DNA from: a virus | Taxonomy: Duplodnaviria; Caudoviricetes | Length of the DNA stretch: 64,000 bases | Reading direction: 5' to 3' (one strand) | IMG/VR virus record: IMGVR_UViG_3300019378_000009 | Location: 1 to 64,000 of that record | In this document: piece by piece, positions 1-16,075 of the stretch | Numbering within the stretch: position 1 is the stretch's first letter | How the letters are laid out: the number at the start of each line of letters is the position of its first letter | Program-made: the position numbers and the translations under genes | Notes under the pieces: model-generated | Databases searched by the model: none | Told to the model about the DNA's origin: nothing | Seen by the model: only the letters and a program-made list of their open reading frames with translations

Positions 1-72
1 ATATTGTATCTTTAAATTGTGCCTATCCGCATCAATATGTTAGACCAAAGTAAAATATAACAAGCCAAGAAT

Positions 73-101
73 TTGATTTTTGGCTTATTTTATGCTATAA
101 T
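73..101 (+). promoter_or_regulatory. sigmaA-type promoter with extended -10
   Basis: TTGATT-17 nt-TATAAT with TG at -15/-14. Confidence 0.8.
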
Positions 102-133
102 ATTTATAGAAAGAATGAGAAAGGGTGATGTGA

Positions 134-613
134 ATGACATTTGTAAAACTCTCGGGACAATACGGATGGTGGGAATGGAATCGCGATAGAATGCGTCTTT
201 ATAACTACGATTGCGGACATACTGACATAGATGAGAACTCTGATGAGTGGATGGGTGCTACTTTACTTGAAGCAGACGATTGGCACGATTTATTTATTAA
301 GACTGGATATTGTCCTCTATATGCTTCTATATGGAAGAATGACCTTTGGGTTGATGTAGATGGTCGCACCTATGAGGGAATGGCTCACGAAGTATGTGCC
401 GAGGATATTGGCGAGATACTATGGGGTAGAGATGATGTCGACGGTGATGAACTCATTCGTCTTGGTTGGATAAAGCTGACCACAAGTGGTATGCTTACTT
501 ATTACATTGATTATGGTATGTATGACCATATTACTATGGAGCAAGAAGATGTTATTCGTCGTTGGGCGGAAAATCACGGTATAAAAGAGTTTGATAATGA
601 AACGTGGGCATAA
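134..613 (+). CDS. hypothetical phage protein
   Basis: 159-aa ORF with SD (AAGGGTGA) after a promoter. Confidence 0.8.
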   Translation: MTFVKLSGQYGWWEWNRDRMRLYNYDCGHTDIDENSDEWMGATLLEADDWHDLFIKTGYCPLYASIWKNDLWVDVDGRTYEGMAHEVCAEDIGEILWGRDDVDGDELIRLGWIKLTTSGMLTYYIDYGMYDHITMEQEDVIRRWAENHGIKEFDNETWA

Positions 614-707
614 TGTTGCGGGCGGAAAATTAAAATTTTGCCTTCAAAAAATTGCTTTTATCTTGTTTTATACTATAATATTTATATAAGAAGAAAGGAA
701 AAACTAA

Positions 708-938
708 ATGATTAAAGATAGAACTTATCAGTGTCCCAAGTGCGGCGAAGAAGTTATGATTACTTGCGAAGATTATTCTTGCGATATGGATTCGGCTGTT
801 TGGTACTTTGTTTGTGATAAATGCAGCGCCGAATGGGCAGAATATTTTGACCTTACCTATGTAGGTTACAAGTGTGACTTTCGCTATTATGATGAGAAAG
901 GCGTGTGTACGCACGATTATAACAAGGCGGAAAATTAA
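708..938 (+). CDS. small Zn-ribbon protein
   Basis: CPKC and CDKC motifs, AGAAAGGA SD. Confidence 0.75.
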   Translation: MIKDRTYQCPKCGEEVMITCEDYSCDMDSAVWYFVCDKCSAEWAEYFDLTYVGYKCDFRYYDEKGVCTHDYNKAEN

Positions 939-958
939 AATTCCGCCTTCAAGAAAAT

Positions 959-987
959 TTGCTTTTTAGCGAAATTTGTGATATAAT
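959..987 (+). promoter_or_regulatory. sigmaA-type promoter of first tRNA unit
   Basis: TTGCTT-17-TATAAT, TGn extension. Confidence 0.75.
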
Positions 988-1023
988 ATTTATACAAAGA
1001 AAAGAAAAGAAAAAATTTTTTTT

Positions 1024-1100
1024 GGAGCAGTAGCCCAACGGCAGCAGGCGATGCACTCAAAATGCATACAGTGTGGGTTCGAATCCCACTTGCTCTACCA
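1024..1100 (+). tRNA. tRNA-Leu(CAA), short variable loop
   Basis: cloverleaf, ATGCA-CTCAAAA-TGCAT anticodon arm, TTCGAAT T-loop, CCA end. Confidence 0.9.
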
Positions 1101-1127
1101 GTAGTTGATGTCATCCTTTTCTTTCTT

Positions 1128-1153
1128 CCCGTGGTAGGCGGGTAATCCTACCA
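1128..1153 (+). ncRNA. compact H-type pseudoknot before tRNA-Gln
   Basis: CCCG/CGGG crossed with GGTAGG/CCTACC. Confidence 0.6.
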
Positions 1154-1160
1154 TCTATAT

Positions 1161-1236
1161 AGGGGTGTAGCTCATATGGTAGAGCATGGGACTTTGACTC
1201 CCTGTGTAGCAGGTTCGACTCCTGTCACCCCCGCCA
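1161..1236 (+). tRNA. tRNA-Gln(TTG)
   Basis: cloverleaf, CT-TTG-AC loop, 1:72 mismatch typical of Gln, GCCA end. Confidence 0.92.
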
Positions 1237-1260
1237 ACAAACATAAGAAAGGAAATATCT

Positions 1261-1470
1261 ATGCCTAAGTTCGTATATATTGAAGATGATCCTTATGAGG
1301 GTTATTTGCCAGACAATGAGGTGATGGCTTATCATAAGCGTCAGGCAGGTTTCGATGTAAAACATAACATTCGCACAGCGGTTAATCTTGCAACGGCATT
1401 GCCCGAAGATAGTATGGCATTTCACTTTTTGATGAGCCAAGATCCTTGGGACGACGATTGGGGGAATTAA
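1261..1470 (+). CDS. hypothetical protein
   Basis: 69-aa ORF with AGAAAGGA SD. Confidence 0.7.
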   Translation: MPKFVYIEDDPYEGYLPDNEVMAYHKRQAGFDVKHNIRTAVNLATALPEDSMAFHFLMSQDPWDDDWGN

Positions 1471-1472
1471 GT

Positions 1473-1679
1473 ATGACGCTAAAAGAAGCAATAGACATTG
1501 GTCGTGCTATGCATTGTGTAACTATTGCAGATGTAGATGAACTTATTTTTCATTTGTATGAAGATATGGGCATTTGGACAGAAGAAGAGTTGCACGAGTA
1601 TTGGAACGACTATGAAACTTGGTGTAAGCTTTATCACGAAGAATTTCCGAACGCAAAATTCATTGATTTGAAAATTTGA
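1473..1679 (+). CDS. hypothetical protein
   Basis: ATG 2 nt after upstream stop; acidic phage-like composition. Confidence 0.65.
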   Translation: MTLKEAIDIGRAMHCVTIADVDELIFHLYEDMGIWTEEELHEYWNDYETWCKLYHEEFPNAKFIDLKI

Positions 1680-1704
1680 TTTTTGGCAAAATTTATGATA
1701 TAAT
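1676..1704 (+). promoter_or_regulatory. sigmaA-type promoter
   Basis: TTGATT-17-TATAAT with TG. Confidence 0.75.
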
Positions 1705-1777
1705 ATATATGTAAGAAAGCAAGAGAAAAAACTTTTGAACCGCTGAATGTCCAGACGCGGTATATAAACCAGTGGCG

Positions 1778-1802
1778 TCCGCGGTAGGCGGAAAATCCTA
1801 CC
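1778..1802 (+). ncRNA. compact H-type pseudoknot before tRNA-Glu
   Basis: TCCG/CGGA crossed with GGTAGG/CCTACC. Confidence 0.6.
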
Positions 1803-1813
1803 TCCTTTTCTAT

Positions 1814-1888
1814 GGGTGTTTAGTCAAGCGGTTAAGATAGGTGCTTCTCAGGCATCAGACAAGAGTTCGATTCTCTTAACACCTACCA
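1814..1888 (+). tRNA. tRNA-Glu(CTC)
   Basis: cloverleaf, GGTGC-TTCTCAG-GCATC, CCA. Confidence 0.9.
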
Positions 1889-1891
1889 TAT

Positions 1892-1968
1892 GCTTCCGTA
1901 GTCTAACAGGAATAGGATAGTGCCCTTTCAAGGCATTGATGCGGTTTCGAGTACCGCCGGAAGTACCA
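1892..1968 (+). tRNA. tRNA-Glu(TTC)
   Basis: cloverleaf, GTGCC-CTTTCAA-GGCAT, CCA. Confidence 0.9.
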
Positions 1969-1971
1969 ACA

Positions 1972-2053
1972 GGCAATAAGATAGATAGGAGTAATTAACC
2001 TATTGACAAGAGCCGACCTTCTCTTCTTATTGTCAATTACATTAAGGTCAGGA
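1972..2053 (+). promoter_or_regulatory. structured leader of GIY-YIG gene (3-way junction plus pseudoknot next to the SD)
   Basis: GGCAATAAG/CTTATTGTC closing stem, two inner hairpins, loop GACCTT complementary to AAGGTC abutting SD. Confidence 0.55.
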
Positions 2054-2060
2054 TAGAATA

Positions 2061-2834
2061 ATGGTCGGTATTTATAAAATAACTAACTTAATTAATGGAC
2101 ATTCTTACATTGGTCAGTCTGTATGTATCACAGAGAGATGGAATAATCATCGCTGTGCCGCTAGAGAAGGCATAGATTATCCATTATATCGAGCAATGAG
2201 AAAATATGGATTAGATAATTTTTCTTTTGAAATTATTGAAGAATGTCCACAAGAATTGTTAAACGAAAGAGAAAAATATTGGATAAGCTATTATAATACT
2301 TATTATGATGGCTATAATCAAACATTGGGTGGTCAAGGTGCATCTGTTGTAAATCCTAAAATTACAGAAATTAAACAAGAGTTAAAACAGTTTAATTTAA
2401 CAATAAAACAAATTGCAGATAAATACAATCTTTCTCCACAACAATTGGCGGCTATTAATAATGGCAGAGCACATTTTGATGAGAATGAATCTTATCCTAT
2501 TAGAAAGAATGTATTCCAAGTAGCTACTTATATTAATAAGCACGGCGATGGAGCACCCAATCATTGTATTGATTGTAACAGACAAATAAGCAAAGGAGCC
2601 ACGCGATGTAGCGAATGTTCTCATCGCCATCAATCTAAAGCAGATAGACCAAATCCAATAATTTTAGCACAAGAAATACTTTCTATGGGATTTTGTGCCG
2701 TGGGAAGAAAATATGACGTATCTGATAATGCTATACGCAAGTGGTGTAAAGCATACGATATGCCAACCAAAAAGCCAGAAATGCAAAAATGGCTTAATCA
2801 ACAATTAGATATTACTACATCAAATGATGTTTAA
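2061..2834 (+). CDS. GIY-YIG homing endonuclease with C-terminal Zn finger/HTH
   Basis: GIYKITN...YIGQS, catalytic R and E, CxxC pairs, VGRKYxVSDNAIRKWC. Confidence 0.9.
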   Translation: MVGIYKITNLINGHSYIGQSVCITERWNNHRCAAREGIDYPLYRAMRKYGLDNFSFEIIEECPQELLNEREKYWISYYNTYYDGYNQTLGGQGASVVNPKITEIKQELKQFNLTIKQIADKYNLSPQQLAAINNGRAHFDENESYPIRKNVFQVATYINKHGDGAPNHCIDCNRQISKGATRCSECSHRHQSKADRPNPIILAQEILSMGFCAVGRKYDVSDNAIRKWCKAYDMPTKKPEMQKWLNQQLDITTSNDV

Positions 2835-2837
2835 TAT

Positions 2838-3350
2838 ACCAGTGGGTGTTCCGACACCGGTCCATGCCTCGAGAGGACAAAGTTGCGGCGTCGATGTTGT
2901 AAGTTTCACGACGATAAACTTAACTTACCGTGAGGAGACCAAAGTCCGCCAAACGATAGGCAACGATAAGGGGTTACCAATTTATCCCAAATTGGCGTAG
3001 GCTGGCAAGTGGAAGCGTTATTATCAACTTGTCTCTTGGTAGAGCAAATGGAACCATAAGGAAAAGCAATGTGCAATTTGTGGGTTTACATTAAACCCTC
3101 TAATGCGACCGAGGTAATATCAAGGCGCTCTCGGGAATGGCAAAGGGCGCGGCAGCAGCCACGAGAAGGACAACTCGTACAAAACCCAAGCTGGGGAACG
3201 CAATACAAAAGAGCCATAATGTTTGCGTAACTTGTGATGAGGCTATGTCCCTTACAAGTGGAACCTGAAACAGAGGTGTGTAGAAACCTAGCAAGGCCGC
3301 GAATCACTACAATGTGCGCACAAGGCACAGAATCGTATGTCTGTGCCTTA
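2838..3350 (+). ncRNA. unidentified large structured RNA A (~510 nt)
   Basis: GC-rich, no credible ORF, many hairpins and a pseudoknot, abuts a tRNA; boundaries approximate. Confidence 0.55.
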
Positions 3351-3353
3351 TAT

Positions 3354-3425
3354 GGCAAAACCTTCGGCAAGGAACATCGTCTCATACACGAAGTCAATTA
3401 GGATCGACACCTATTTTTGCCACCA
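3354..3425 (+). tRNA. atypical tRNA with CAT anticodon
   Basis: GGCAAAA/TTTTGCC acceptor plus ACCA, TCGT-CTCATAC-ACGA, short D arm, T-loop ATCGACA. Confidence 0.65.
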
Positions 3426-3460
3426 CGACGCGTTACATTATTGGTTTCCTCCTTTCTTTC

Positions 3461-3489
3461 TAGCGGAGGGGTAGCCGCTAATCTACCCC
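3461..3489 (+). ncRNA. compact H-type pseudoknot before tRNA-fMet
   Basis: TAGCGG/CCGCTA crossed with GGGGTAG/CTACCCC. Confidence 0.65.
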
Positions 3490-3497
3490 ACTTTTCT

Positions 3498-3573
<76 letters not shown>

Positions 3574-3759
3574 TTACCCATAGGATGAGGGTAGTTAATA
3601 GTCCTACTGTTTCTTTGTTTTAGTGAAAAACATTGGCACGACAGTAAGTGAAGTTACTGTGATGTTCTTACCATCGGTTGTAAGACACGGTTTCCGTATT
3701 TATCGTGGCGTTGACTTGGGTCCGCAAGCCTGACTAGCAAAATACGGTTATAAGAAAAT

Positions 3760-3788
3760 TTGATTTTTTGTCTAATTTGCGTTATAAT
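3760..3788 (+). promoter_or_regulatory. sigmaA-type promoter
   Basis: TTGATT-17-TATAAT. Confidence 0.7.
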
Positions 3789-3814
3789 AATTATACAAAA
3801 GAAAAAAGTTAAAT

Positions 3815-3888
3815 GCGGGTATCGTATAACAGTAGTATAACGGTCTTCCAAACCGTGGGCACCGGGCCAGCACCGGTTATCCGCTCCA
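3815..3888 (+). tRNA. tRNA-Gly(TCC)
   Basis: GCGGGTA/TATCCGC, CT-TCC-AA loop, U73, variant T-loop GCCAGCA. Confidence 0.88.
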
Positions 3889-3890
3889 AA

Positions 3891-4545
3891 GCGCAGATTG
3901 GGTGACACGAGCATGAGAAGTAGATAGCGGTTGAAAATCGTGCGGGAGAGAGTACCTCTACCCAAGAGGGAAAGTCAGAGCTTTATGGCGATAAGATAAA
4001 AGTCTGATAATGCTTATCCCACCGAAGAATACGGTATATAAACTCGCTAAGGGTGCAGAAAACCCTTCGGTTGACCTCGTTAGACACTTAGATTGTTTGT
4101 CAGGGCTTTGTAGGGATAAAGTGGTCAAAAACCTTCCGCCTCTTCTGGCGTTAACGGGCATCAGGTTGGTGATGTAAAATTTACGGCAGCGGTGGGCCGT
4201 ACCAGTACATCCGCAAGGTGGTTAGTGCTTGCACCAATAATGAAGCGACGTCGGCGGAGGCGAGAAACACCGTGGAGCCAACTAGTTCGGCGTATGTAGA
4301 CTATGTATGGAGCAGCCATCTAAAAAGCCGGGGTCTCGTATCCGTGAGCAACGAGGAGTGCATTGGAACTCTGGCACTATAAAGATTATTGATTCATTGG
4401 GCGGATATAGATGTTAACCACGTCGAGTAGCATCAAACCTTTGTCGGTCGGATAGTCCGCAAAAACACCGTGGCGGGAGCGTATCTCCTGCTCCAACCCG
4501 AGGATTGAGGGGATGGTAACTACCGACCTACTGAAACAGGTAGCA
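3891..4545 (+). ncRNA. unidentified large structured RNA B (~650 nt; may extend to 4805)
   Basis: ORF-free, GC-rich, numerous stems between tRNA-Gly and tRNA-Ser. Confidence 0.55.
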
Positions 4546-4550
4546 TAAAA

Positions 4551-4648
4551 ATTTCACACGATTCACTGGGCTCCGGGTGGTTCAACTCCACCTGTCTGGC
4601 AATGTGCTAGGCATGAGGATGTAGGATGTTGCGGAGATAGTGTGAAAT
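4551..4648 (+). ncRNA. circularly permuted tRNA-like RNA (YrlA/Y-RNA-like)
   Basis: closing stem, then T arm GGTGG-TTCAACT-CCACC, loop-closed 9-bp acceptor, D-like arm with GG, back to closing stem. Confidence 0.6.
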
Positions 4649-4807
4649 AGTTACAGTCGCGAATGTAACAAACGCGACTTCTTGGACGCAAGAGTTGCGG
4701 ACGGACGGAAGGAACATATCCGTCGTTAAAGAACCCGTATATGGTAGGCGGCGAATCAACCACGCAGAAGAATAGCAATGCACTGCGATAACAAAAGCAG
4801 CTTATAT

Positions 4808-4898
4808 GGAGGATTGGAGTAATTTGGTATCTCAAGGGATTGCTAATCCCTCCTACAGTCATCCTGTAGTACAGGTTCGAGTCCTGTATCTTCCGCCA
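4808..4898 (+). tRNA. tRNA-Ser(GCT)
   Basis: long variable arm, TT-GCT-AA loop, GCCA. Confidence 0.92.
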
Positions 4899-5038
4899 TA
4901 CAACGGGCCCCCGGCAGTTTAAAGGCAGTTCTGCCGTACTCGAGCAAACGAGGTAATGTCAAATTTTTGATATTGGGGACAAAACGACCAAAAACGCCAG
5001 AGGCGCCCAACCAAAAATTTTAACGGAGGAAATAATCT

Positions 5039-5329
5039 ATGTATTTCATTATACGCTACAATTGGAATATTAATACTTTTGCGCTTACTAATAGAAAAAC
5101 AGTAGGTTATTTTGATACGCTCTCCAAAGCCTATGATACAATTACAAAGTGTCTACCGAATGACACAGCTCGTAATACAGTAGCAATAGCAGAAATACCA
5201 GAGGGCATAGACCAATACGCACATCCAAAAATGACATTTGAGTGGTGTGAGCAGTATGATTGCTATGTACCTGTCGCGGCAGACGATCCGCGACGCAGTT
5301 TCACTATGTGTTTTACGAGCAGAGACTAA
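5039..5329 (+). CDS. hypothetical protein
   Basis: 96-aa ORF with GGAGG SD. Confidence 0.7.
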   Translation: MYFIIRYNWNINTFALTNRKTVGYFDTLSKAYDTITKCLPNDTARNTVAIAEIPEGIDQYAHPKMTFEWCEQYDCYVPVAADDPRRSFTMCFTSRD

Positions 5330-5349
5330 GTTTCTGCTCTTTTATTTTT

Positions 5350-5424
5350 ACATGGTTAGTTTAACGGAAAGAACAGATGGCTACGAACTATCAGATATGG
5401 GTTCAACTCCTGTACCATGTGCCA
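5350..5424 (+). tRNA. tRNA-Arg(ACG)
   Basis: cloverleaf, CT-ACG-AA loop, CCA. Confidence 0.9.
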
Positions 5425-5426
5425 AT

Positions 5427-5501
5427 GCCCGAATAGCATAACGGATAGTGCAGCGGATTTCTAATCCGCCTATGAGGGTCCGACTCCTTCTTCGGGTGCC
5501 A
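5427..5501 (+). tRNA. tRNA-Arg(TCT)
   Basis: cloverleaf, GCGGA-TTTCTAA-TCCGC, CCA. Confidence 0.9.
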
Positions 5502-5509
5502 AATAATAT

Positions 5510-5585
5510 ACTGGTGTAATTCAGTGGTTAGAAGCCTCGTCTGATACGCGAGTCGTCGGTGGTTCGAATCCACCCACCAGTACCA
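5510..5585 (+). tRNA. tRNA-Ile(GAT)
   Basis: cloverleaf, CT-GAT-AC loop, CCA. Confidence 0.9.
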
Positions 5586-5670
5586 CGCCAGAGATGAGTA
5601 ACAAATTAGCGCCACCTGGGCAATAAATAAAGACGCAAATAAGTAGTTAGCTGATTTAAAGCTATCATAT

Positions 5671-5756
5671 GCTCTAGTCGCATAGTGGCCGATTGCACTC
5701 GCCTTGTAAGCGAGAGACGAAAGTCCCCGTCCGTTCGAATCGGACCTAGAGCTCCA
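5671..5756 (+). tRNA. tRNA-Thr(TGT) with extra variable arm
   Basis: CTCGC-CTTGTAA-GCGAG, GAC-GAAA-GTC variable hairpin, CCA. Confidence 0.85.
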
Positions 5757-5758
5757 AT

Positions 5759-5835
5759 GCCCCCGTAGGCCAACTGGAAGAGCCGTCAGTCTTAGAAACT
5801 GAATGTTGTGGGTTCGAATCCCACCGGTGGCACCA
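5759..5835 (+). tRNA. tRNA-Leu(TAG), short variable loop
   Basis: TCAGT-CTTAGAA-ACTGA, CCA. Confidence 0.88.
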
Positions 5836-5959
5836 AAGCGTTATGGTTCGCGCTCCATCGTGGTCCATATAAAAACTGGGAGAGCCGCCAAGTATGGTAG
5901 ACTTGTCGGTAGCAAGGGGTAAAACACTACCAGTCCGATTCACGGCACCCTTGCAGTAT

Positions 5960-6033
5960 GTTCGCTTCGTATAATGGTAGTATGCTGACTCTTAATCAGT
6001 AAGGTATGGGTTCGAGTCCCATGGCGAGCACCA
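5960..6033 (+). tRNA. tRNA-Lys(CTT)
   Basis: cloverleaf, CT-CTT-AA loop, CCA. Confidence 0.9.
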
Positions 6034-6054
6034 AAAACAAAAGAAGGTAATTTT

Positions 6055-6267
6055 ATGGAACACAGAGAGTGGATTGAGTTTTTAGTAGACAAATTTATTA
6101 CCAATGAAACTAAAGTACGATGCTGCGGCAGTTGTATGGGAGGTTGCATAAATCCTACAACTTGTTTCATCTGTTGTGGTTTTTCTGCGCAACATCTTAA
6201 CGATTATATTGAAAAAATTGGCAAAGATAAACTTAATCAAGAATTTGAACAAAGAATGGTCGAGTAG
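6055..6267 (+). CDS. Cys-rich small protein overlapping tRNA-Cys
   Basis: GAAGG SD, 7 Cys in 19 codons, stop codon lies inside tRNA-Cys. Confidence 0.65.
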   Translation: MEHREWIEFLVDKFITNETKVRCCGSCMGGCINPTTCFICCGFSAQHLNDYIEKIGKDKLNQEFEQRMVE

Positions 6268-6343
6268 TCAAGTGGCTTAAGACTCCGGTCTGCAACACCG
6301 CGTACCTTAATTGGCGTGAGTTCGAATCTCACCTCGACCTCCA
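6258..6343 (+). tRNA. tRNA-Cys(GCA), long variable region
   Basis: GGTCGAG/CTCGACC, CT-GCA-AC loop, U73, CCA. Confidence 0.88.
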
Positions 6344-6368
6344 ACGCAAAATGCGCCGTGACAAAAAT

Positions 6369-6397
6369 TTGATTTTTAGCGCAATTCATGATATAAT
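6369..6397 (+). promoter_or_regulatory. sigmaA-type promoter
   Basis: TTGATT-17-TATAAT with TG. Confidence 0.75.
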
Positions 6398-6570
6398 ATT
6401 ATTGTAAGAAAGCAAAGGAAAAACTTTGTTTCTCTTGCGGGCAAGGTTATATTGGCAGAGTAGATTAACAGCCCTTAATATGAAACGCGAACTGTCCCCA
6501 CAGCACTGTGGATTACAGTGCTAGCCCAGTATGTCGGCTTGAAACTTATACCGTGTTCATACGATAGTTG

Positions 6571-6596
6571 GCGGTTGGCGACTCCGTATAAGTCGC
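6571..6596 (+). ncRNA. compact H-type pseudoknot before tRNA-Asp
   Basis: GCGG/CCGT crossed with GCGACT/AGTCGC. Confidence 0.55.
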
Positions 6597-6606
6597 ATCC
6601 TTTTCT

Positions 6607-6681
6607 GGTCATGTAGCTCAGGGGTAGAGCACCTCGCTGTCACCGAGGAGGTCGGGCTGTCGGAATGCCTCATGATCGCCA
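6607..6681 (+). tRNA. tRNA-Asp(GTC), variant T arm
   Basis: CCTCG-CTGTCAC-CGAGG, G73, T-loop GTCGGAA. Confidence 0.85.
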
Positions 6682-7409
6682 GACCCTGACATAGGGCCGC
6701 TATACTATGTTGGTTTGACTGACCGAATCAGTTGGCTATCACCTCGCCGAAAGGGTGCGGCTTCTCTTTTCACGATATGGAATTGAGTGACTTGTGGGTA
6801 CGAGATTGAACGATCGCTCACCCGTGGTTCAAAGTAACTGTGAATTAAATATCGTTTGGGTTTGGTTTCCACCCGCTTAGCGGCGAACGGACGTGTTACC
6901 GTACTGCGATAACAAACGGGGTTTTAGTTGGGAAGGTTTGTCCTATAAATTGACTTCCTCGGGAGCTCGCGTCCCCGTAAGGTTAGCTGACCAACCGCAA
7001 CTCAAGAACATTCCACGCTTGGCTTGGCGGCGAAAGGTGGCGTTGTTGGTGATTTGAGTCGAAAATTGAAATCATCGCTTTTGGGCAATTTAGTGTAATG
7101 AAATTGCTATGGAGTTCAAGTCCCAGATACGCACAGAGGCGTTAGAAGAGCCTCGCCGCGGTAAAGACCTAGCCAGTCAACTTGTACAGTCGTTAGAATA
7201 AGGACGATGCCAAAAGTCTTATTCGCCATCCTACTTGAGCCAAGCAAGAGAGGAATTGGTTTAAAATTGGGCTTGGTAAATCACGCAGGCTTTCATTTTA
7301 TATGTTTGCATCCTCGTGCGGTGGCAGTCGACGAAACAATAGATTGCGGCGGCTTTTAATAGTTGAGTCGAGGCTCTGTAGAGTCTTAAGGGTGGCACCA
7401 CAACTATTA
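6682..7409 (+). ncRNA. unidentified large structured RNA C (~730 nt)
   Basis: ORF-free, long-range stems such as GCTTGGCTT/GAGCCAAGC and TAATAGTTG/CAACTATTA, fills the gap between two tRNAs. Confidence 0.55.
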
Positions 7410-7414
7410 CATAT

Positions 7415-7490
7415 ATCTGTTTAGCTCAGCTGGGAGAGCGCCGTTCTTACAAATCGGAGGTCATAGGTCCGAGTCCTATAACAGATACCA
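7415..7490 (+). tRNA. tRNA-Val(TAC)
   Basis: cloverleaf, CT-TAC-AA loop, CCA. Confidence 0.88.
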
Positions 7491-7491
7491 T

Positions 7492-7565
7492 AGGAGGGTC
7501 AGTCAAAGGAAGGCTAGTGGTCTCCAAAACCACCAATGGGATGTCAGAATTCTCACCTCCTGCCA
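7492..7565 (+). tRNA. tRNA-Trp(CCA), variant T arm
   Basis: GTGGT-CTCCAAA-ACCAC, G73, T-loop GTCAGAA. Confidence 0.82.
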
Positions 7566-7568
7566 TTT

Positions 7569-7645
7569 GGGGAATTAGCTCATGTTGGGAGAGCATCCGC
7601 CCTGCAAGCGGAAGGTGATGGGATCGTCGCCCATATTCTCCACCA
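7569..7645 (+). tRNA. tRNA-Ala(TGC)
   Basis: G3:U70, TCCGC-CCTGCAA-GCGGA (C33), CCA. Confidence 0.88.
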
Positions 7646-7703
7646 AAACACGAACAATCCGCCATACTGGCTCCGAACTCGTGTATAAATAAACGGAACA
7701 AGA

Positions 7704-7735
7704 GGGTTTGTAGTGTGACCTACCAAAAACACTAC
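7704..7735 (+). ncRNA. H-type pseudoknot before tRNA-Asn
   Basis: GGGTT/GACCT crossed with GTAGTGT/ACACTAC. Confidence 0.5.
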
Positions 7736-7739
7736 TTGT

Positions 7740-7814
7740 GGGAGATTCGCAAAGTGGTTGTTGCATGCGGCTGTTAACCGCACTACAGGGGTTCAATTCC
7801 CTTATCTCCCGCCA
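7740..7814 (+). tRNA. tRNA-Asn(GTT)
   Basis: TGCGG-CTGTTAA-CCGCA, GCCA. Confidence 0.9.
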
Positions 7815-7976
7815 GCGGGAGTTTCGTTTGTTACCCGTGAACTGCTTACCCAAAGAAACATAGGGTAAACAAAAGCAGACCAGTATAGGTCGGGGCAAGA
7901 TGGGATAATTCCTGCAGGTCTAATGCTTCCCCGTAAAGGATACAGAGAAGACTGTGGTACTTCCTATACTAAGTAT

Positions 7977-8065
7977 GGTGAATTAGCCTAATGGTAAGGC
8001 AGCAGTCTTGAAAACTGCCGTTGGTGTGAAAGCCATTCAGGGTTCGAATCCCTGGTTCACCGCCA
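7977..8065 (+). tRNA. tRNA-Ser(TGA)
   Basis: long variable arm, CT-TGA-AA loop, GCCA. Confidence 0.92.
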
Positions 8066-8091
8066 AAATATAATAATGGAGTTGTTTAAGT

Positions 8092-8730
8092 ATGGCATAC
8101 ATTTATAAAATTACCAATCAAATTAATCAAAAATGTTATATCGGTAAAACACTAAGAACCATAGAAGTTCGTTGGAGAGAACATCGAAAAGATTATCAAA
8201 AACCAGAAAAAAGTCATCAACCGTTATACAGAGCAATGAATAAGTATGGATTTGATAATTTTGCAATTAGTATCGTCGAAGAATGTGACGACACAATTGT
8301 AGAAGAAAGAGAACGATATTGGATTGAATATTATCAATCTTTTAAAAATGGTTATAATGCTACATTGGGTGGGGACGGAAAGCCGTATATTGATTATGAT
8401 AAAGTTTGCGCTTTATATGAAATATATAAGAACCAAAACGAAGTAGCTAGGCAAATGAATATTAACAAAACTACTGTGCATTATATACTACGGCAACGGA
8501 ACATAGATATGATTCCCTCTTCTTTAGTCACGCCGATGACTACAGGTAAAGTAGTACATCAATATTCATTAAATAATGATTATATCAATACTTTTATGTC
8601 TTTAAGCGAGGCAGCTCGTTATTTAAAAGATGAGTATAATATTACTGCAAATATATCTTCTATTGTATGTAATATTGGTCGTTGTCTTTCTGGCAAAAGA
8701 AAAACTGCTTATAAATTTATTTGGAAATAA
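8092..8730 (+). CDS. GIY-YIG homing endonuclease with NUMOD1-like C-terminus
   Basis: YIYKITN..YIGKT; VHQYSLNNDYINTFMSLSEAA...TAYKFIW. Confidence 0.9.
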   Translation: MAYIYKITNQINQKCYIGKTLRTIEVRWREHRKDYQKPEKSHQPLYRAMNKYGFDNFAISIVEECDDTIVEERERYWIEYYQSFKNGYNATLGGDGKPYIDYDKVCALYEIYKNQNEVARQMNINKTTVHYILRQRNIDMIPSSLVTPMTTGKVVHQYSLNNDYINTFMSLSEAARYLKDEYNITANISSIVCNIGRCLSGKRKTAYKFIWK

Positions 8731-8742
8731 TTTTTTGTTTGT

Positions 8743-8810
8743 TGGTAGCAAAGAAAAACCAACGCCGCAGAAATGCGTATTTTGTGTTTACTGGTAGCAA
8801 AGAAAAACCA
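8743..8810 (+). repeat. 19-bp direct repeat TGGTAGCAAAGAAAAACCA x2
   Basis: copies at 8743-8761 and 8792-8810. Confidence 0.85.
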
Positions 8811-8843
8811 GAAAAAAGTAGGGAGAAAATGAAAGGTTACGGA

Positions 8844-9068
8844 ATGAAATTTAGAGCAAAAGTGCGCCTAGATACTCAAACAGAAATTGCAAACTTTGTA
8901 AATCGTGTTAGTTCTGTTTCTGTACCTGTATTCCTAACAAGTGGCGCCCTATGTGTAAGCGGAAAAAGTTTACTGGGCGCCATTTATACTATGGAATGGG
9001 ATGACCTATGGTGTGAATGTGAAGAAAACATTTATCACTTAATTGAGGACTTTATTATTGTGGATTAG
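8844..9068 (+). CDS. HPr-family protein lacking the His15 motif
   Basis: VSGKSLLG matches HPr Ser46 motif (xAKSIMG); start could be 8829. Confidence 0.7.
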   Translation: MKFRAKVRLDTQTEIANFVNRVSSVSVPVFLTSGALCVSGKSLLGAIYTMEWDDLWCECEENIYHLIEDFIIVD

Positions 9069-9083
9069 TCCGCCACGCAATAT

Positions 9084-9171
9084 GGGAGAGTAGCAAATCG
9101 GCAACTGCACTGGTCTGTAAAACCGGCACTCGTATCGAGTACAATGGGGTCGGCACCCATCTCTCCCACCA
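9084..9171 (+). tRNA. tRNA-Tyr(GTA)
   Basis: variable arm, CT-GTA-AA loop, T-loop GTCGGCA, ACCA. Confidence 0.88.
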
Positions 9172-9179
9172 AATTATAT

Positions 9180-9255
9180 GCCTGTGTAGCTTAGATGGTT
9201 AGAGCGCTGGTTTGAAGCACCAGAGAGGAAGATTCGATCGCTTCCGCAGGCACCA
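9180..9255 (+). tRNA. tRNA-Phe(GAA)
   Basis: CTGGT-TTGAAGC-ACCAG, ACCA. Confidence 0.88.
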
Positions 9256-9263
9256 AAAATGAT

Positions 9264-10025
9264 ATGAGGGACAATATGACAGGAATTTATAAATACACCA
9301 ATTTAATAAACGGTAGCTGTTATATAGGACAAGCTGTTGACTTAGTGCGCAGACACAAAGATCATAAAGTTCGTTATTGTTCACCAACATCAGAAGAATA
9401 CAATAGCGTAATACATCAAGCTTTTCGTAAGTATGGTATAGAAAATTTTACTTATGAAATCCTTGAAGAGTGTGATGTTGAGCAATTAAATGATCGAGAA
9501 ATTTATTGGATTGCTTTTTATGATAGTTACAATAGCGGCTATAATTGTGGACCAGGTGGTTCTGAAAAACATTTCTGTAAGTTTAATGCAGATATATTAG
9601 CAAGCATTACAAATGATTTGCAAAATACTGATATGACATATCAAGACATTGCTAATAAAAATGGTTGTTCTGTGGGCTTTGTTGGTGATTTTAATGCAGG
9701 AAAGTTATGGAAACAAGATGGAGTGCAGTATCCACTTAGACAACATAAGAGAAATCAAAGATTTTGCACTGTATGCAATACACCAATTAGCAAAGATGGT
9801 GTTACTGGAATGTGTTCCAAATGTTATGCCAAGTCTATTCGTACAGTTGAAAGACCGAGTGCGGAACAGTTGTTAGAAGAAGTAGCGACCTCTTCTTTCG
9901 CTGCTGTGGGGCGTAAATATAATTTAACAGATAATGCAATACGCAAATGGTGTAAAGCATATGGTTTACCCACGCATTCAAAAGAAATAAAAGATTTATA
10001 TAATCGTACGTTTTTAAGCACTTAA
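9264..10025 (+). CDS. GIY-YIG homing endonuclease, paralog of 2061-2834
   Basis: GIYKYTN..YIGQA, CxxC pairs, VGRKYNLTDNAIRKWCKAY. Confidence 0.9.
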   Translation: MRDNMTGIYKYTNLINGSCYIGQAVDLVRRHKDHKVRYCSPTSEEYNSVIHQAFRKYGIENFTYEILEECDVEQLNDREIYWIAFYDSYNSGYNCGPGGSEKHFCKFNADILASITNDLQNTDMTYQDIANKNGCSVGFVGDFNAGKLWKQDGVQYPLRQHKRNQRFCTVCNTPISKDGVTGMCSKCYAKSIRTVERPSAEQLLEEVATSSFAAVGRKYNLTDNAIRKWCKAYGLPTHSKEIKDLYNRTFLST

Positions 10026-10088
10026 TAAGTTGGCTAGGGTAAGAGGACCCGATAAGTAGTTGATAATAAAACAATAACCAGAAAATAT

Positions 10089-10165
10089 GGGACTTTAGTA
10101 CAAATGGTTCGTGCACTTGGCTCATAACCAAGCTTATCTGGGTTCAAATCCCAGGGGTCCCACCA
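10089..10165 (+). tRNA. tRNA CAT (Ile2 or elongator Met)
   Basis: CTTGG-CTCATAA-CCAAG, paired 1:72, ACCA. Confidence 0.85.
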
Positions 10166-10173
10166 ATTAATTT

Positions 10174-10249
10174 GCAGGTGTAGCAGACTGGTAATGCACT
10201 CGACTTTTAATCGAGGTAATGTAGGGTTCGAATCCCACTACCTGCACCA
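10174..10249 (+). tRNA. tRNA-Lys(TTT)
   Basis: CTCGA-CTTTTAA-TCGAG, ACCA. Confidence 0.88.
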
Positions 10250-10275
10250 TATGTCAATATAACAGGAGGTAAACT

Positions 10276-11040
10276 ATGACAACTAAATATTTTGTAGTAA
10301 GTGATGTTCATGGCTTTTACTCCTTACTTATGAAAGCACTCAAGCAGCAAGGATTTGAAATAAACAATCCTTCTCATCACCTTATCATTTGCGGCGATGC
10401 TTTTGACCGCGGCAAGGAAGCAAAACAATTACAAGATTTTCTTGTGTCTATGCAAGAACAAAATCGTTTGATATATATTTGCGGCAACCACGAAGATTTA
10501 ATGCTTGAAATGATAAGAGATTTGCCGCAGATTTGCGACCATATAGAGTGGACGCATCACGCAAGCAATGGTACTGTTTCTACTCTGTTGCAGCTTACAG
10601 GAATGACACTCTCACAAGTTAAGCGTGATCCATATCGTGCAATAGAGTATTTTACTCACACTCCATTTTATAAGCAACTGTTGCCAGAAATAGTAGATTA
10701 TGTGGAAATTGGTGACTGCGTGTTTGTACATGGTTGGATACCTTGTTTTTCTCATTTGCATAATTGGCGCGAAGCCTCTAATAGCGAATGGAGAGAAGCA
10801 AGATGGTGGAATGGTATGGAATTGTGGCGCAATAAAGCATGCCGCGAATCCGGAAAAACCATTGTTTGTGGACATTGGAACTGTAGCTGGGGCTGGGCAC
10901 AAGAGGATTGCGAAACATATACGGAATGGGGACAGAGTGCAAACTTCGAACCCTATGATCGTGAAGGTATTCTCGCTATTGACGGATGCGTTGCATACAG
11001 CGGAATTATGAATTGCGTAGTATTGGAAGTTGACAATTAG
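10276..11040 (+). CDS. calcineurin-like metallophosphoesterase
   Basis: DVHG, GDAFDRG, GNHE, VHG, GHW motifs. Confidence 0.9.
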   Translation: MTTKYFVVSDVHGFYSLLMKALKQQGFEINNPSHHLIICGDAFDRGKEAKQLQDFLVSMQEQNRLIYICGNHEDLMLEMIRDLPQICDHIEWTHHASNGTVSTLLQLTGMTLSQVKRDPYRAIEYFTHTPFYKQLLPEIVDYVEIGDCVFVHGWIPCFSHLHNWREASNSEWREARWWNGMELWRNKACRESGKTIVCGHWNCSWGWAQEDCETYTEWGQSANFEPYDREGILAIDGCVAYSGIMNCVVLEVDN

Positions 11041-11058
11041 TCCAAGTTGTGTTATAAT
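11030..11058 (+). promoter_or_regulatory. consensus sigmaA promoter
   Basis: TTGACA-17-TATAAT with TG. Confidence 0.85.
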
Positions 11059-11091
11059 ATACTCGGAGAAGAAGTAAAAGGACGGTATATT

Positions 11092-11715
11092 ATGATAAAC
11101 ACTACGCGTTTACGCTTAATCATTGGATGGTTAGCTATTTCATTATCGCTAATTGTACTTATATTATCTTTAAGTTTTGGTTTTGGTTTTCCAGACTCAA
11201 TTTCTGCAACTTATTATTTTGATACTTGTATTACGCCTTTTATGATTATTTTGGGTTCCGCAAGCATTTTATTATTTAGTTATCGTGGTTATGACAAGCA
11301 AGATGATATAATATGCACTATAGCGGGTATTTTGGGATTGTGTATTTGTCTTTTTCCTTGCATGACAACGCCAGTACCAATGGCTTTTGTTGGTACTTTC
11401 CATTTGCCTGTAATATTAAGTGGTATAATTCACAATATAACAGCTGCGGGATTTTTTGCATTGTTGGCATATAATTCATTATTTTTGTTCACCAAAAGTG
11501 GCGAAATTATGACCGATAAAAAGAAAAAGCGTAATTTAGTTTTTCGCATCTGCGGTATTGGTATGTTAGTAGCATTTGCGCTAATTATTCCGGTCGCGAT
11601 TTTTCAAATACATGGTTTAACTTGGGTGCTTGAATTTATTGCGTTAAGCTTTTTTGGAATATCTTGGTTAACAAAAGCCAATTATTATTCTTGGCTTTTC
11701 GCAGAAAAAGACTAA
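11092..11715 (+). CDS. multi-pass membrane protein (DUF998-like)
   Basis: about 6 hydrophobic segments, SISxxY and H..A motifs. Confidence 0.75.
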   Translation: MINTTRLRLIIGWLAISLSLIVLILSLSFGFGFPDSISATYYFDTCITPFMIILGSASILLFSYRGYDKQDDIICTIAGILGLCICLFPCMTTPVPMAFVGTFHLPVILSGIIHNITAAGFFALLAYNSLFLFTKSGEIMTDKKKKRNLVFRICGIGMLVAFALIIPVAIFQIHGLTWVLEFIALSFFGISWLTKANYYSWLFAEKD

Positions 11716-11723
11716 ATTAAAAT

Positions 11724-11752
11724 TTGATTTTTAACAAAATTTATGCTATAAT
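11724..11752 (+). promoter_or_regulatory. sigmaA-type promoter of the giant-RNA transcription unit
   Basis: TTGATT-17-TATAAT with TG. Confidence 0.8.
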
Positions 11753-11852
11753 ATTTATAGAAAGAACAAAGAAGTCTGGAATTTTTATCGCGCTGATGTT
11801 AGTCAGACTTAAAAGAGGAAACGCGCGCTCAATCTTTGTTCTTTTGTTTAAT

Positions 11853-11926
11853 GGGTTGCTAGTTTAACGGTAAAACGGCAGATTGTGGCTCTGCTCTTAG
11901 TAGTTCAATTCTACTGCTTCCCTCCA
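11853..11926 (+). tRNA. tRNA-His(GTG), atypical acceptor
   Basis: GCAGA-TTGTGGC-TCTGC; two U:U acceptor mismatches, no encoded G-1/C73. Confidence 0.78.
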
Positions 11927-11997
11927 AGTTCCCATCCAGATGACCCTGAGATGTCTATATGGGCATACTATAGACAGAGAGATGGGAACTATTATTT

Positions 11998-12072
11998 GCA
12001 GGTATAGTATAATGGTTATTATGAGTCCTTGCCAAGGATTAGATGTGGGTTCAATTCCCATTACTTGCTCCA
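11998..12072 (+). tRNA. tRNA-Gly(GCC)
   Basis: AGTCC-TTGCCAA-GGATT, U73, CCA. Confidence 0.9.
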
Positions 12073-12260
12073 GGCTGACGAGGTAGATTGGCAATCTACG
12101 AGGTCTGAGCCGTTGTATCACAACTTGCCCAGTGTTGGCGGACTAGTAGGTATACGCAGCATAAATCATAGACCAAGTGGGATGTTCCCCAAAACTCTAT
12201 GGGGTCTATGTACCTGTCCATAATGAATACCCGAACCAAAAGGCAGAAAACCTCTGCAAC
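12073..12260 (+). ncRNA. unidentified structured RNA D (~190 nt)
   Basis: stems GTAGATT/AATCTAC, CATAGACC/GGTCTATG; no ORF. Confidence 0.4.
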
Positions 12261-13458
12261 TTTTGCACTGTTGCCAATAGTACCAGTATGCACCAAAAGG
12301 TACTAACACACATTTGAGTTAGCAAATAAGATTGTGTTGTCTAACGCGGCAGGTGTCGTCTCCCATACGATAATGGGATGCCAAATGCAGAGGCTGGCAA
12401 CCTGCCGTTTCGCTTGACGATATAAGCTACGGAAAGATTCGGTAGAAATATCGAACTGCACGTTGGTGCTACGAAGATCCCTTAAGCCGTTAGCCGTAAA
12501 GTAGTGGAGCTTATGCTGAGAAGTTATTTTACGTGAATCGGGGTGCTTGCAGGTTCTGTAATTCGTTTGTTAATCGTGAGAACTGTTGGGGCGGGGTTGT
12601 GCCGAGAGCTGTAGTAAATGGAGTTAGAAGAACAGCCAACGAGTTAAATATTTGGTGCCACGAAGCGCCGCCTACACTGAGTATTAAGACTCGACGTAAA
12701 AGGGAATGGTGAAGCAGAAGCAGTGGTAAATGGAATGTGATAAACAGCCAATGAATCAAAAAAATTGTATAGGTATCAGGTAAGATTAAGATAGCTCTGT
12801 AGTGACAAAGAGAACGCTAGAAATAGAGATGAGGTTGCAAACCCTCTGGAGCATACGCCTATACTACAGAACAGAAAACTGTACAAACAATGTCCGTGGA
12901 CTGAAACGGCCACAGGCGAGGATAGGGAAAATATCGCCGTAAATATTTGGTGCCTACTCGGGGAATACAGGTGGTAGGATAAATGAGACGACCCAGCCAG
13001 CCAAATATAGCAAACAATTAAGGTAGTGGACGGACGGGACGACGGTGAAATGACGTTGTGTTGATTGTTTGCGAAAAACTTGGGAGTCGGTGGAACAGAT
13101 CGCCCCGACAGAGCATCCACAGCATCGTTAAGCATTTACCTCTACTGTGCTATTGAAAATCTACGATCCAGCGAGCCGGCCGCTATTGTCGGTAAAACCC
13201 CGATATCGTAGAGTTGGGTACCGCAAGAAGGTGGATAAAAGCGGGATAAAAATGTTATCACCAAACCTCGAAAATAGCAGGCAGTTGAAATACAATGCAC
13301 CATTTCGAGTGAGTCCAAAGGCCGTGCCTATACGACCGCGGTTGAACCTCAAGGCCACGCGAGTGGTACAAGGTAAAAGTAGGCTGAAATACCGCTGGCA
13401 AAATTGCAAATCGGATACGCAGATATGGGCTAAGTAAACGCATATCTCAAGTGCACAA
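12261..13458 (+). ncRNA. ROOL-like giant RNA, expanded (~1200 nt)
   Basis: terminal pairing TGCACT/AGTGCA; 5' CACCAAAAGG..AGCAAATAAG and 3' CAATGCA..GTCCAAAG..AAGT.GGCTGAAA..TCTCA motifs resemble ROOL as recalled. Confidence 0.6.
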
Positions 13459-13459
13459 C

Positions 13460-14197
13460 GAAGAGGAGCCGAGGATTTAGGAAACGTAGGACAACGGAGT
13501 GTAGATAGCTCGTCGCAAGAAATTTGAGGAGTTGACCGTCTTTCTTCACGGGCGGATGCCAAAGGTCATTGCTCACCCATCCTTGTGTTATTCATCGTGA
13601 GAACGAGCGTGTAATACAGAACAATGTTGAGTTGTTCAAGTGTGGGAAGAGTTGAGGTTTCGCTCAAGGAAGAACCTCTGGGCGTTTCCGAATATTGTAA
13701 TGGGTGCGACGGCACTCGTAACATATTGTTAAACAAACTATCGAAAAGTAGTAGGTCCCCTCGACGGCTGTTGCCGGGCACGGATTGGACTGAGGGATAA
13801 GTGGGAAGGTAGTGAACTGCCTACGGTGGAAGCAAGAACGTGTTGTGGATGCTTAGATAGTGATAGGGGCTGGCATACGTGCCCTGGTCCCACCTTACAC
13901 GAGTTGAACTCGTGATAGACGCTTTAACTGGGCGTCGCGGCGGTCCCTACGCAGAAATAGGGGCTACACTTCGAGTGTGGCAAAATGTTTTACTTCGCCT
14001 TTAGAGGTGCGCTCGCAGGACGAGCCAACCAATCCACGGGTTGTAAAATAAACACGAAAAGCGCGTCTTAGACAAAAGGCGGTTCTATCATATGCTAGTG
14101 ATATGATATTTGGGAGGGAATGTTAGGTGGCGTCCCAAAGTGTAATAGGTGGCGATAACCGCAGTGAAGCAACCCAATGCGTGAAGAGGTTGTGGCA
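13460..14197 (+). ncRNA. unidentified large structured RNA E (~740 nt)
   Basis: at least 15 hairpins plus long-range GGAAACG/CGTTTCC; ORF-free. Confidence 0.55.
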
Positions 14198-14206
14198 TTA
14201 TATAAT

Positions 14207-14281
14207 AGGCAGGATTTGCCCGAAGTGGTAATTCTGGAAGACACTTACGGTGATGTGGGTTCGATTCCCGCCGGACAGCCT
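14207..14281 (+). ncRNA. tRNA-like element without a normal anticodon arm
   Basis: TTGCCCG/CGGACAG acceptor-like stem, perfect T arm GTGGG-TTCGATT-CCCGC, no CCA. Confidence 0.5.
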
Positions 14282-14315
14282 GTGATAGTTATATAGTGAA
14301 ACCGTAAATAAATAT

Positions 14316-14389
14316 ACAGAATGTGATGTAACAGTAACATACGAGTTTTGGGAACTTGAGTAGCGGGGCGGCACCGACATTCTGTACCA
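14316..14389 (+). tRNA. tRNA-Pro(TGG), variant T arm
   Basis: CGAGT-TTTGGGA-ACTTG, ACAGAATG/CATTCTGT, ACCA. Confidence 0.78.
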
Positions 14390-14416
14390 GTATTAAATAA
14401 GTCAGGAGATGCTATT

Positions 14417-14539
14417 ATGTATACCAAAGAACTTCGTAAGCTCATTATTGAAAATCGTCTTGCAAGATTGGCTACCAATGGTAAAGACAATTGGCCGATA
14501 CGCAAGAAGCTCGAAAGAGAATTGAAGAAATATTCCTAA
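14417..14539 (+). CDS. 40-aa basic protein (below ORF-track cutoff)
   Basis: AGGAGA SD, MYTKELRKLIIENRLARL... Confidence 0.6.
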   Translation: MYTKELRKLIIENRLARLATNGKDNWPIRKKLERELKKYS

Positions 14540-14544
14540 ATTAG

Positions 14545-14572
14545 TCCCGAATTTATTCGGGATTTTCTTTTT
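14545..14572 (+). terminator. intrinsic terminator ending the RNA island
   Basis: TCCCGAA/TTCGGGA hairpin plus U tract. Confidence 0.75.
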
Positions 14573-14580
14573 GAAAAAAT

Positions 14581-14609
14581 TTGATTTTTTTTAAATTTTA
14601 TGGTATAAT
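14581..14609 (+). promoter_or_regulatory. sigmaA-type promoter
   Basis: TTGATT-17-TATAAT with TG. Confidence 0.75.
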
Positions 14610-14630
14610 AATATTAGAAAGGAGAAGCAG

Positions 14631-14840
14631 ATGAAGTTATATGAAAAACTAATAAGGCTTTTTATTGCCTTTTGTTTATGTTTTAGCGCTGGCTTTTCAA
14701 TGATTTGTGCTATTGCATTTTTATGCGCATGTATACAATATGGAGCGTTTGTAGCAGGAGTAACAGGTATATTATGGGCAATTTTCGCAAATTTTCAAGC
14801 AGTTACAGCAGAAGAATATGTGAAGGGAGTTTATTTATGA
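14631..14840 (+). CDS. small membrane protein
   Basis: two hydrophobic segments, AGGAG SD. Confidence 0.7.
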   Translation: MKLYEKLIRLFIAFCLCFSAGFSMICAIAFLCACIQYGAFVAGVTGILWAIFANFQAVTAEEYVKGVYL

Positions 14841-15010
14841 TTAAAACAGAATGTATAAATTGTACAAAATCTAATTATTGCGGCAAAGATAGTTTCGGTA
14901 ATTTGCGTTTTGGGTGCAACAACTCTTTTTGTGTAAAAGAAGATGTCGTACCAAACAAATACCGCGATGAAATTCTACAGGAGTATAAGAATGGCGGCAA
15001 GAATTCTTGA
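14837..15010 (+). CDS. small Cys-rich protein
   Basis: ATGA overlap with upstream stop; CxxC. Confidence 0.55.
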   Translation: MIKTECINCTKSNYCGKDSFGNLRFGCNNSFCVKEDVVPNKYRDEILQEYKNGGKNS

Positions 15011-15839: not shown

Positions 15840-15853
15840 AAGGAGAAAAAACA

Positions 15854-16075
15854 ATGGAAAAAATTCAAGAAACAATTAAAGTTAAACATGATACTGAACG
15901 CGAAGCAGTAGAGTTTATTGACGCAGAGCGCAAGAGAGCAAAAGAAGAAGGCTTTGAAATTAAGAAAAGTGGATATGTAAGAAAGGCTAAGAAAAGCAAA
16001 GGGGTTGAGGTAGCAGACTGGTACCTTTCAGAAATAACCTACAAGTATGCCGAGGAATACATAGCGGAGGGTTAA
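15854..16075 (+). CDS. hypothetical protein
   Basis: AGGAG SD, 73 aa. Confidence 0.7.
   Translation: MEKIQETIKVKHDTEREAVEFIDAERKRAKEEGFEIKKSGYVRKAKKSKGVEVADWYLSEITYKYAEEYIAEG

Follow-up and report, generated by a model that had tools for sequence, protein, structure and literature searches.

The tRNA array and the interval between tRNAAsp and tRNAVal

The source record is a complete phage genome of 109,428 bp with direct terminal repeats, and the window is the whole stretch analyzed here, its first 64 kb (64,000 nt). The phage is a gut phage, and its genome has a GC content of 36.9%. The tRNA array (1024–12072) contains 25 co-oriented tRNA genes, 23 reported by ARAGORN and two by Rfam only (3815–3885 and 6607–6678). 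Three genes for GIY-YIG homing endonucleases and one for a metallophosphoesterase are interspersed among the tRNAs. Genes for FolD and ThyX come after the array, and the remaining window encodes replication and nucleotide-metabolism proteins. With the phosphoesterase compared to cultured-phage records, no cultured relative was found, the sole similarities (about 28% identity) being to phages of Bacillota. The FolD gene (14943–15839) has 45%–52% GC within the 37% GC genome, which suggests a recent acquisition from the host or from another phage.

Between the genes for tRNAAsp and tRNAVal lies an interval of 728 nt, called block C in the following. The features in and around it are listed below.

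6369–6397, + strand: phage consensus promoter of the sigma-A type (TTGATT, 17-nt spacer, TG-extended TATAAT), preceded by a conserved AAAATTTGATTTTT block
6398–6606, + strand: leader of about 200 nt from promoter to tRNAAsp, as read from the sequence
6607–6681, + strand: tRNAAsp (GTC) with encoded CCA and an unusual T arm (Rfam RF00005, 44.8 bits; no report by ARAGORN)
6682–7409, + strand (the tRNA strand): the whole of block C, 728 nt, the interval from tRNAAsp to tRNAVal
6682–7016, + strand: 5′ part of block C, no ordered structure seen in the folding z-scores
7017–7246, + strand: central part of block C, with a closing stem GCTTGGCT (7017)/AGCCAAGC (7238) in the MFE fold
7247–7409, + strand: 3′ part of block C, with a terminal 9-bp hairpin TAATAGTTG (7357)/CAACTATTA (7401), 5 nt before tRNAVal
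7415–7490, + strand: tRNAVal (TAC) (ARAGORN, and Rfam with 61.9 bits)

The first-pass annotation described the block as starting directly after a CCA and ending 5 nt before the next tRNA, and took it to be punctuated exactly by tRNAs. The limits are as described, with the encoded CCA of tRNAAsp at 6679–6681 and tRNAVal starting at 7415. The punctuation carries no evidential weight, since the block was delimited as the gap between two tRNAs. The T arm of tRNAAsp is odd (GGGCTGTCGGAATGCC), and the same arm is kept in the tRNAAsp of phage record G005, which is 86% identical to that of the window.

Block C has 47.4% GC against the 36.9% of the genome (97th percentile of 728-nt windows), and the plainly intergenic gaps near it have 32%–35%. 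The genome contains no paralog of the block, and there are no significant internal repeats or iterons in it. A repeated motif, GCGGCGAA, was considered as a block-specific signal and rejected, as coding regions carry it too.

The promoter at 6369 is one of seven aligned copies in the first 15 kb and scores 10/12, with the TG, in the promoter scan. It is located 210 nt upstream of tRNAAsp and 285 nt upstream of block C. The pattern TTGA-N16-TGNTATAAT has 19 matches in the window (1.5 expected), 18 of them on the + strand. Copies associated with the array are at 959, 1676, 3760, 6369, 11030, and 11724, and further + strand sites are at 73, at 14581, and at 10 more positions up to 47770. The leader contains a hairpin (6578–6596) followed by ATCCTTTTCT; this site (6578–6605) was flagged as terminator-like and may act in attenuation or as a signal for processing.

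The promoter and terminator scan gave no terminator-like site inside block C, and no consensus promoter occurs between the copy at 6369 and that at 11030. Block C thus does share a strand and a transcription unit with tRNAs. What is looked for in an RNA co-transcribed with tRNAs (shared strand and unit, no internal terminator) is found here. Because there is no further consensus promoter before 11030, the downstream tRNAs for Val, Ala, Asn, and Ser need read-through of block C, and judging from the sequence it is very likely that the block is transcribed together with the tRNAs. Transcription from 6369–6397 would cover tRNAAsp, block C, and then tRNAVal, tRNAAla, tRNAAsn, and tRNASer, and excision of the flanking tRNAs would free block C as a piece of about 730 nt. 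The 3′ maturation of the CCA-encoding tRNAAsp at 6681/6682 would set its 5′ end. RNase P cleaves tRNAs at their 5′ end, from which we infer a cut at 7414/7415 (the 5′ end of tRNAVal), where the block C RNA would then end.

Coding potential, RNA families, and folding

Block C is non-coding. Over six frames, the longest ORF with a start codon has 55 aa and the longest stop-to-stop frame 72 aa. Each of the six frames contains 10–13 stops (13.1 expected from composition), and the stop density shows no trace of a recently decayed gene. Reading TAG as Q, TGA as W, or TAA as Q opens no frame in the block. Pfam (E ≤ 1) gave nothing for the eight longest frames, and a search of 5.8 billion protein clusters with the longest + strand frame returned no relative. 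An exact look-up of four ORFs of the block (two starting with ATG, and two starting with GTG that were typed with M) in a collection of 15 billion proteins returned a gene call for none of the four. The view that the block is without a protein gene is borne out by each of these tests (ORF length, stop density, Pfam, and protein collections).

The 4227 models of Rfam 15 were run on 971 nt (6550–7520), where only the two flanking tRNAs score above threshold. Inside block C there is no match at E ≤ 10 with the laxest filters, and this includes the models for GOLLD, OLE, HEARO, raiA, group I and group II introns, RNase P, tmRNA, and 6S. ROOL (RF03087, cutoff 99.1 bits) is absent at E ≤ 10 from 6550–7520 and from 1–13000, and it is not detectable in the window, including 12000–15000. 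As a positive control, a genuine ROOL from the tRNA array of G005, a related phage, was recovered with 138.8 bits; it is found at L008:1–551 on the − strand (G005:C1:54078–54628), where the locus ends before the RNA is complete. The first-pass annotation had seen no GOLLD motifs, and the cmscan search agrees with it, with no family match for GOLLD, ROOL, or OLE. No tRNA or tRNA-like element occurs in 6682–7409 (RF00005, ARAGORN, and Rfam at E ≤ 10).

HDV-like theta ribozymes flank tRNAs in gut phages (PMC10879173). The theta, or minimal HDV-like, fold was defined here as a nested double pseudoknot with a catalytic C and with cleavage at most 5 nt from the tRNA end. A loose home-made descriptor of it has no match starting at 6677–6687. 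In the rest of 1–16000 the same descriptor starts at five sites with the catalytic C, and at 10, 12, and 9 sites in the controls with A, G, and U, respectively. With this loose descriptor, a ribozyme of this kind was not found at the 3′ end of tRNAAsp, where no fold fits from the CCA, and there is no enrichment over the controls.

The block had been credited with nested long-range stems, and the arms quoted are all present: ACGATAT (6772)/ATATCGT (6849), GCTTGGCTT (7017)/GAGCCAAGC (7237), GCGGCGA (6880 and 7027)/TCGCCGC (7153), and TAATAGTTG (7357)/CAACTATTA (7401). As evidence for a large fold they do not hold, since such arms occur at chance frequency. Compared with 300 dinucleotide shuffles, block C has 20 perfect complementary 7-mer arms (16.5 ± 5.5 in shuffles), five 8-mer arms (4.4), and two 9-mer arms (1.07), and a share of 0.25–0.45 of the shuffles reaches the observed counts.

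Folded whole, the block gives MFE z-scores of −0.08 to +0.33 (+ strand) and −0.30 (− strand). The three parts of the block differ. In the 5′ third (6682–7016), z is +1.18 (equalled or bettered by 91 of 100 shuffles), with local windows between −0.06 and +1.25. The center (7010–7255) gives a weak signal, with z at −1.59 and 10 of 200 shuffles as good, and the closing stem of the central part is present in both the MFE and the centroid fold. The 3′ end (7247–7414) has a z of −2.04 (matched by 5 of 200 shuffles), and its MFE and centroid folds coincide; local windows of this part carry a signal on the + strand only (z of −1.5 to −1.7, while the − strand gives +0.1 to +0.8).

Over block C, 120-nt sliding windows average +0.04 in z, and not one is below −2. 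Windows below that value number three in block B (a second block of the array, described below), two in the ROOL of G005, five in the FolD coding sequence, and four in homing-endonuclease coding sequence, so that block C ranks last among the blocks and controls tested. The sliding-window test separates RNA from coding sequence poorly, and the folding tests are of little power, since the genuine ROOL itself reaches a whole-sequence z of only −1.04 (−1.24 for the coding control). The description of block C as a GOLLD-sized RNA draws only on size, GC content, and context. A giant folded RNA is here a candidate only and unproven, and none of these tests shows one.

Block C and the related arrays

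No match to block C was found in the INPHARED phages or the PLSDB plasmids. Scans of IMG/VR anchored on the phosphoesterase, a 222-aa ORF, and ThyX gave only distant phages and no homolog of the block. With tRNAAsp, tRNAAla, tRNAVal, an 83-nt element, and the hairpin of block B as anchors, searches of IMG/VR, JGI metagenomes, and GTDB genomes retrieved related loci in two IMG/VR phages, G005 (135 kb) and G006 (233 kb), and in the metagenome contigs L019, L020, L022, L023, and L024. The promoter and a number of tRNAs of the window recur in these relatives, with identities of up to 93%. The full consensus promoter, AAAATTTGATTTTT-N-TGNTATAAT, is common to G005, L019, and L022–L024.

Searches for block C itself with blastn (word size 7) and nhmmer were negative over 238 kb of related loci. 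A covariance model built on the single sequence 7010–7409 recovered only its own copy in 243 kb including the window. Closer relatives exist, with phosphoesterase homologs of 65%–97% identity, mostly in ENA and Logan assemblies. The sampling is thin, with only two or three complete related arrays. ORF-poor blocks of 300 nt or more number about 25 in the related arrays; since most of these are also orphans at the present sampling depth, the orphan status of block C is by itself weak evidence against a function. The same sampling is able to reveal a conserved RNA, since block B was found in the same loci, and block C is not one.

The 83-nt element (7885–7967) is conserved and is not a tRNA. It has an 8-bp closing stem, AGTATAGG/CCTATACT, and is reported by neither ARAGORN nor Rfam. 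It is found with 88% identity in L019 and with about 80% identity over 155 nt in G006. In L019, tRNALys (ctt) directly adjoins this element, and in the window the two stand 1,843 nt apart. This is a presence/absence difference of 1.84 kb (window 6034–7884 against L019:395–562). The intervening cassette of the window consists of tRNACys, the promoter at 6369, tRNAAsp, block C, tRNAVal, tRNAAla, and tRNAAsn. From the abutting of tRNALys and the 83-nt element in L019, it follows that the cassette with block C is present or absent as a unit; the nearest relative is without the entire 1.84 kb.

Block B (3886–4807) is free of ORFs and has 49% GC. It is conserved with 75% identity over 983 nt in L019, and partial copies occur in L020, L023, and G005. 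It contains a hairpin, CCGGGGTCYCG-TATCCGTGAGYAA-CGRG, with an invariant 13-nt loop (TATCCGTGAGYAA) and a compensatory change in the stem, and it folds better than its shuffles (MFE z of −3.05). No Rfam family matches it at E ≤ 10. An nhmmer profile of five block B sequences matched only 3889–4794 within 1–16000 and did not hit block C. The block that follows tRNAAsp in G005 was considered as a homolog of block C and rejected, as it belongs to the block B family and has the hairpin in common with it. Long stop-free frames in the block B homologs were likewise rejected as genes: they lie on different strands, are mutually dissimilar, and are due to chance. As a new large phage RNA, block B is a far more promising candidate than block C.

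Readings of block C and comparison with other tRNA-linked RNAs

Our preferred reading, which we hold to be an even call, takes block C for a passenger or spacer RNA that is specific to its lineage and belongs to a recombining (mobile) tRNA cassette. The block would carry transcription through to the downstream tRNAs and would have no conserved sequence or fold of its own, unlike an ornate RNA of the GOLLD or ROOL type, and probably no function in trans. In favor of the reading are the non-coding nature of the block, its promoter context, its stems at chance level, an MFE z near 0, the lack of a homolog, and the variability at the level of the cassette. Several points speak against it. A functionless stretch of 728 nt is unusual in a compact phage genome, and 47% GC in a 37% genome argues for selection or for recent arrival. 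Related arrays hold large RNAs in a like setting (the ROOL of G005, and block B), an analogy that may also weigh against a spacer. The folding tests are weak, the relatives are thin, and the 3′ 170 nt have a weak fold signal on the + strand.

It is also possible, and we keep it as a tentative but serious alternative, that block C, mainly its 3′ 400 nt (7010–7409), is a functional, lineage-specific structured ncRNA. By analogy, such an RNA would be freed by tRNA processing, stabilized by the 3′ hairpin, and active in trans, through self-assembly or as a decoy or sponge for host factors. The GC enrichment, the absence of ORFs, the location on the tRNA strand downstream of a strong promoter, the 9-bp hairpin at the predicted 3′ end, and the z-scores of the 3′ parts (−1.6 and −2.0) are consistent with this, as are the presence in related arrays of ROOL and of the conserved block B with its compensatory hairpin change, and the placement of ROOL and GOLLD near phage tRNA islands (PMC12286853). 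Against it are the lack of a homolog in the related loci searched and of an Rfam match, the chance-level stems, the weakest folding signal among blocks and controls, and the absence of the cassette from the corresponding site of the closest relative. We doubt that an undescribed class of tRNA-island RNAs, released by tRNA processing and acting in trans, has its first known member in block C or in the 3′ 400 nt of it; such an RNA might, by analogy, be a decoy for tRNA-targeting defense nucleases or might self-assemble like ROOL and GOLLD.

We consider it improbable that block C is made up of several small, independent RNAs of the kind of the 83-nt element (7885–7967), although the first-pass annotation allowed for more than one RNA here. 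The predicted fold is in separate domains with a disordered 5′ third, and the same operon does contain that small conserved non-tRNA element, but block C has no internal tRNA-like element at E ≤ 10, no sub-element of it is kept in relatives, and the HDV-like signal of the loose descriptor is not above that of the mutated controls. It is still less probable that block C belongs, as a strongly diverged member, to a catalogued family (GOLLD, ROOL, OLE, a group I or II intron, or a ribozyme) or that it is a DNA site (such as an origin or a packaging site). Only the size and the tRNA-island location speak for these, and there is no Rfam match at E ≤ 10 while the ROOL control scores 138.8 bits. Replication origins are usually AT-rich; block C is GC-rich and without significant repeats or iterons. 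A decayed gene, or one or more small proteins, can practically be set aside: FolD (14943–15839) proves that GC-rich foreign coding DNA occurs in the genome and a 50-aa ATG ORF (7207–7359) has an AAGGA just upstream, but just 2 nt separate this AAGGA from the ATG, the six frames have stops at random density, alternative codes open nothing, and there is no Pfam match, homolog, or gene call.

Phage tRNA islands are the home of the unexplained giant RNAs ROOL and GOLLD, and the present phage group has in its tRNA islands several more ORF-free, GC-rich blocks. ROOL (RF03087), an ncRNA of about 500–600 nt, occurs in phages and prophages, often close to tRNA islands (PMC12286853). Like ROOL, block C is large, non-coding, and linked to tRNAs, and a true ROOL is present in the related array of G005; unlike it, block C has no model match at E ≤ 10, no conserved fold, and no homologs. 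GOLLD, often longer than 800 nt, is phage-borne, adjoins or encloses tRNAs, and is made during lysis (PMC12286853). Block C is similar to it in size, in being phage-borne, and in its adjacency to tRNAs, but it has no match to the Rfam model and lacks a detectable counterpart of the conserved 3′ domain by which GOLLD is defined.

The tRNA cluster of phage T4 contains stable RNAs (species 1 and 2, rnaC and rnaD) that are not tRNAs and are co-transcribed with the phage tRNAs. The rnaC and rnaD species are freed by tRNA-processing enzymes, have about 120–140 nt, and are conserved among the T-even phages; to our knowledge, their function is still unknown. In contrast to these short, T-even-conserved RNAs, block C is an orphan of 728 nt. 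It resembles ROOL, GOLLD, and the T4 RNAs only in its linkage to tRNAs and its presumed release by tRNA processing. Were it a true RNA, block C would enlarge the still growing group of tRNA-linked phage RNAs that await a function.

Block B has the same layout as block C, namely a consensus promoter, a tRNA, a GC-rich and ORF-free block of 0.7–0.9 kb, and a tRNA. Whereas block B is conserved, with a compensatory change and a z of −3.05, block C has none of these. In a ranking of targets, block C is the weakest block, and the conserved block B (3886–4807) and 83-nt element (7885–7967) are the better ones.
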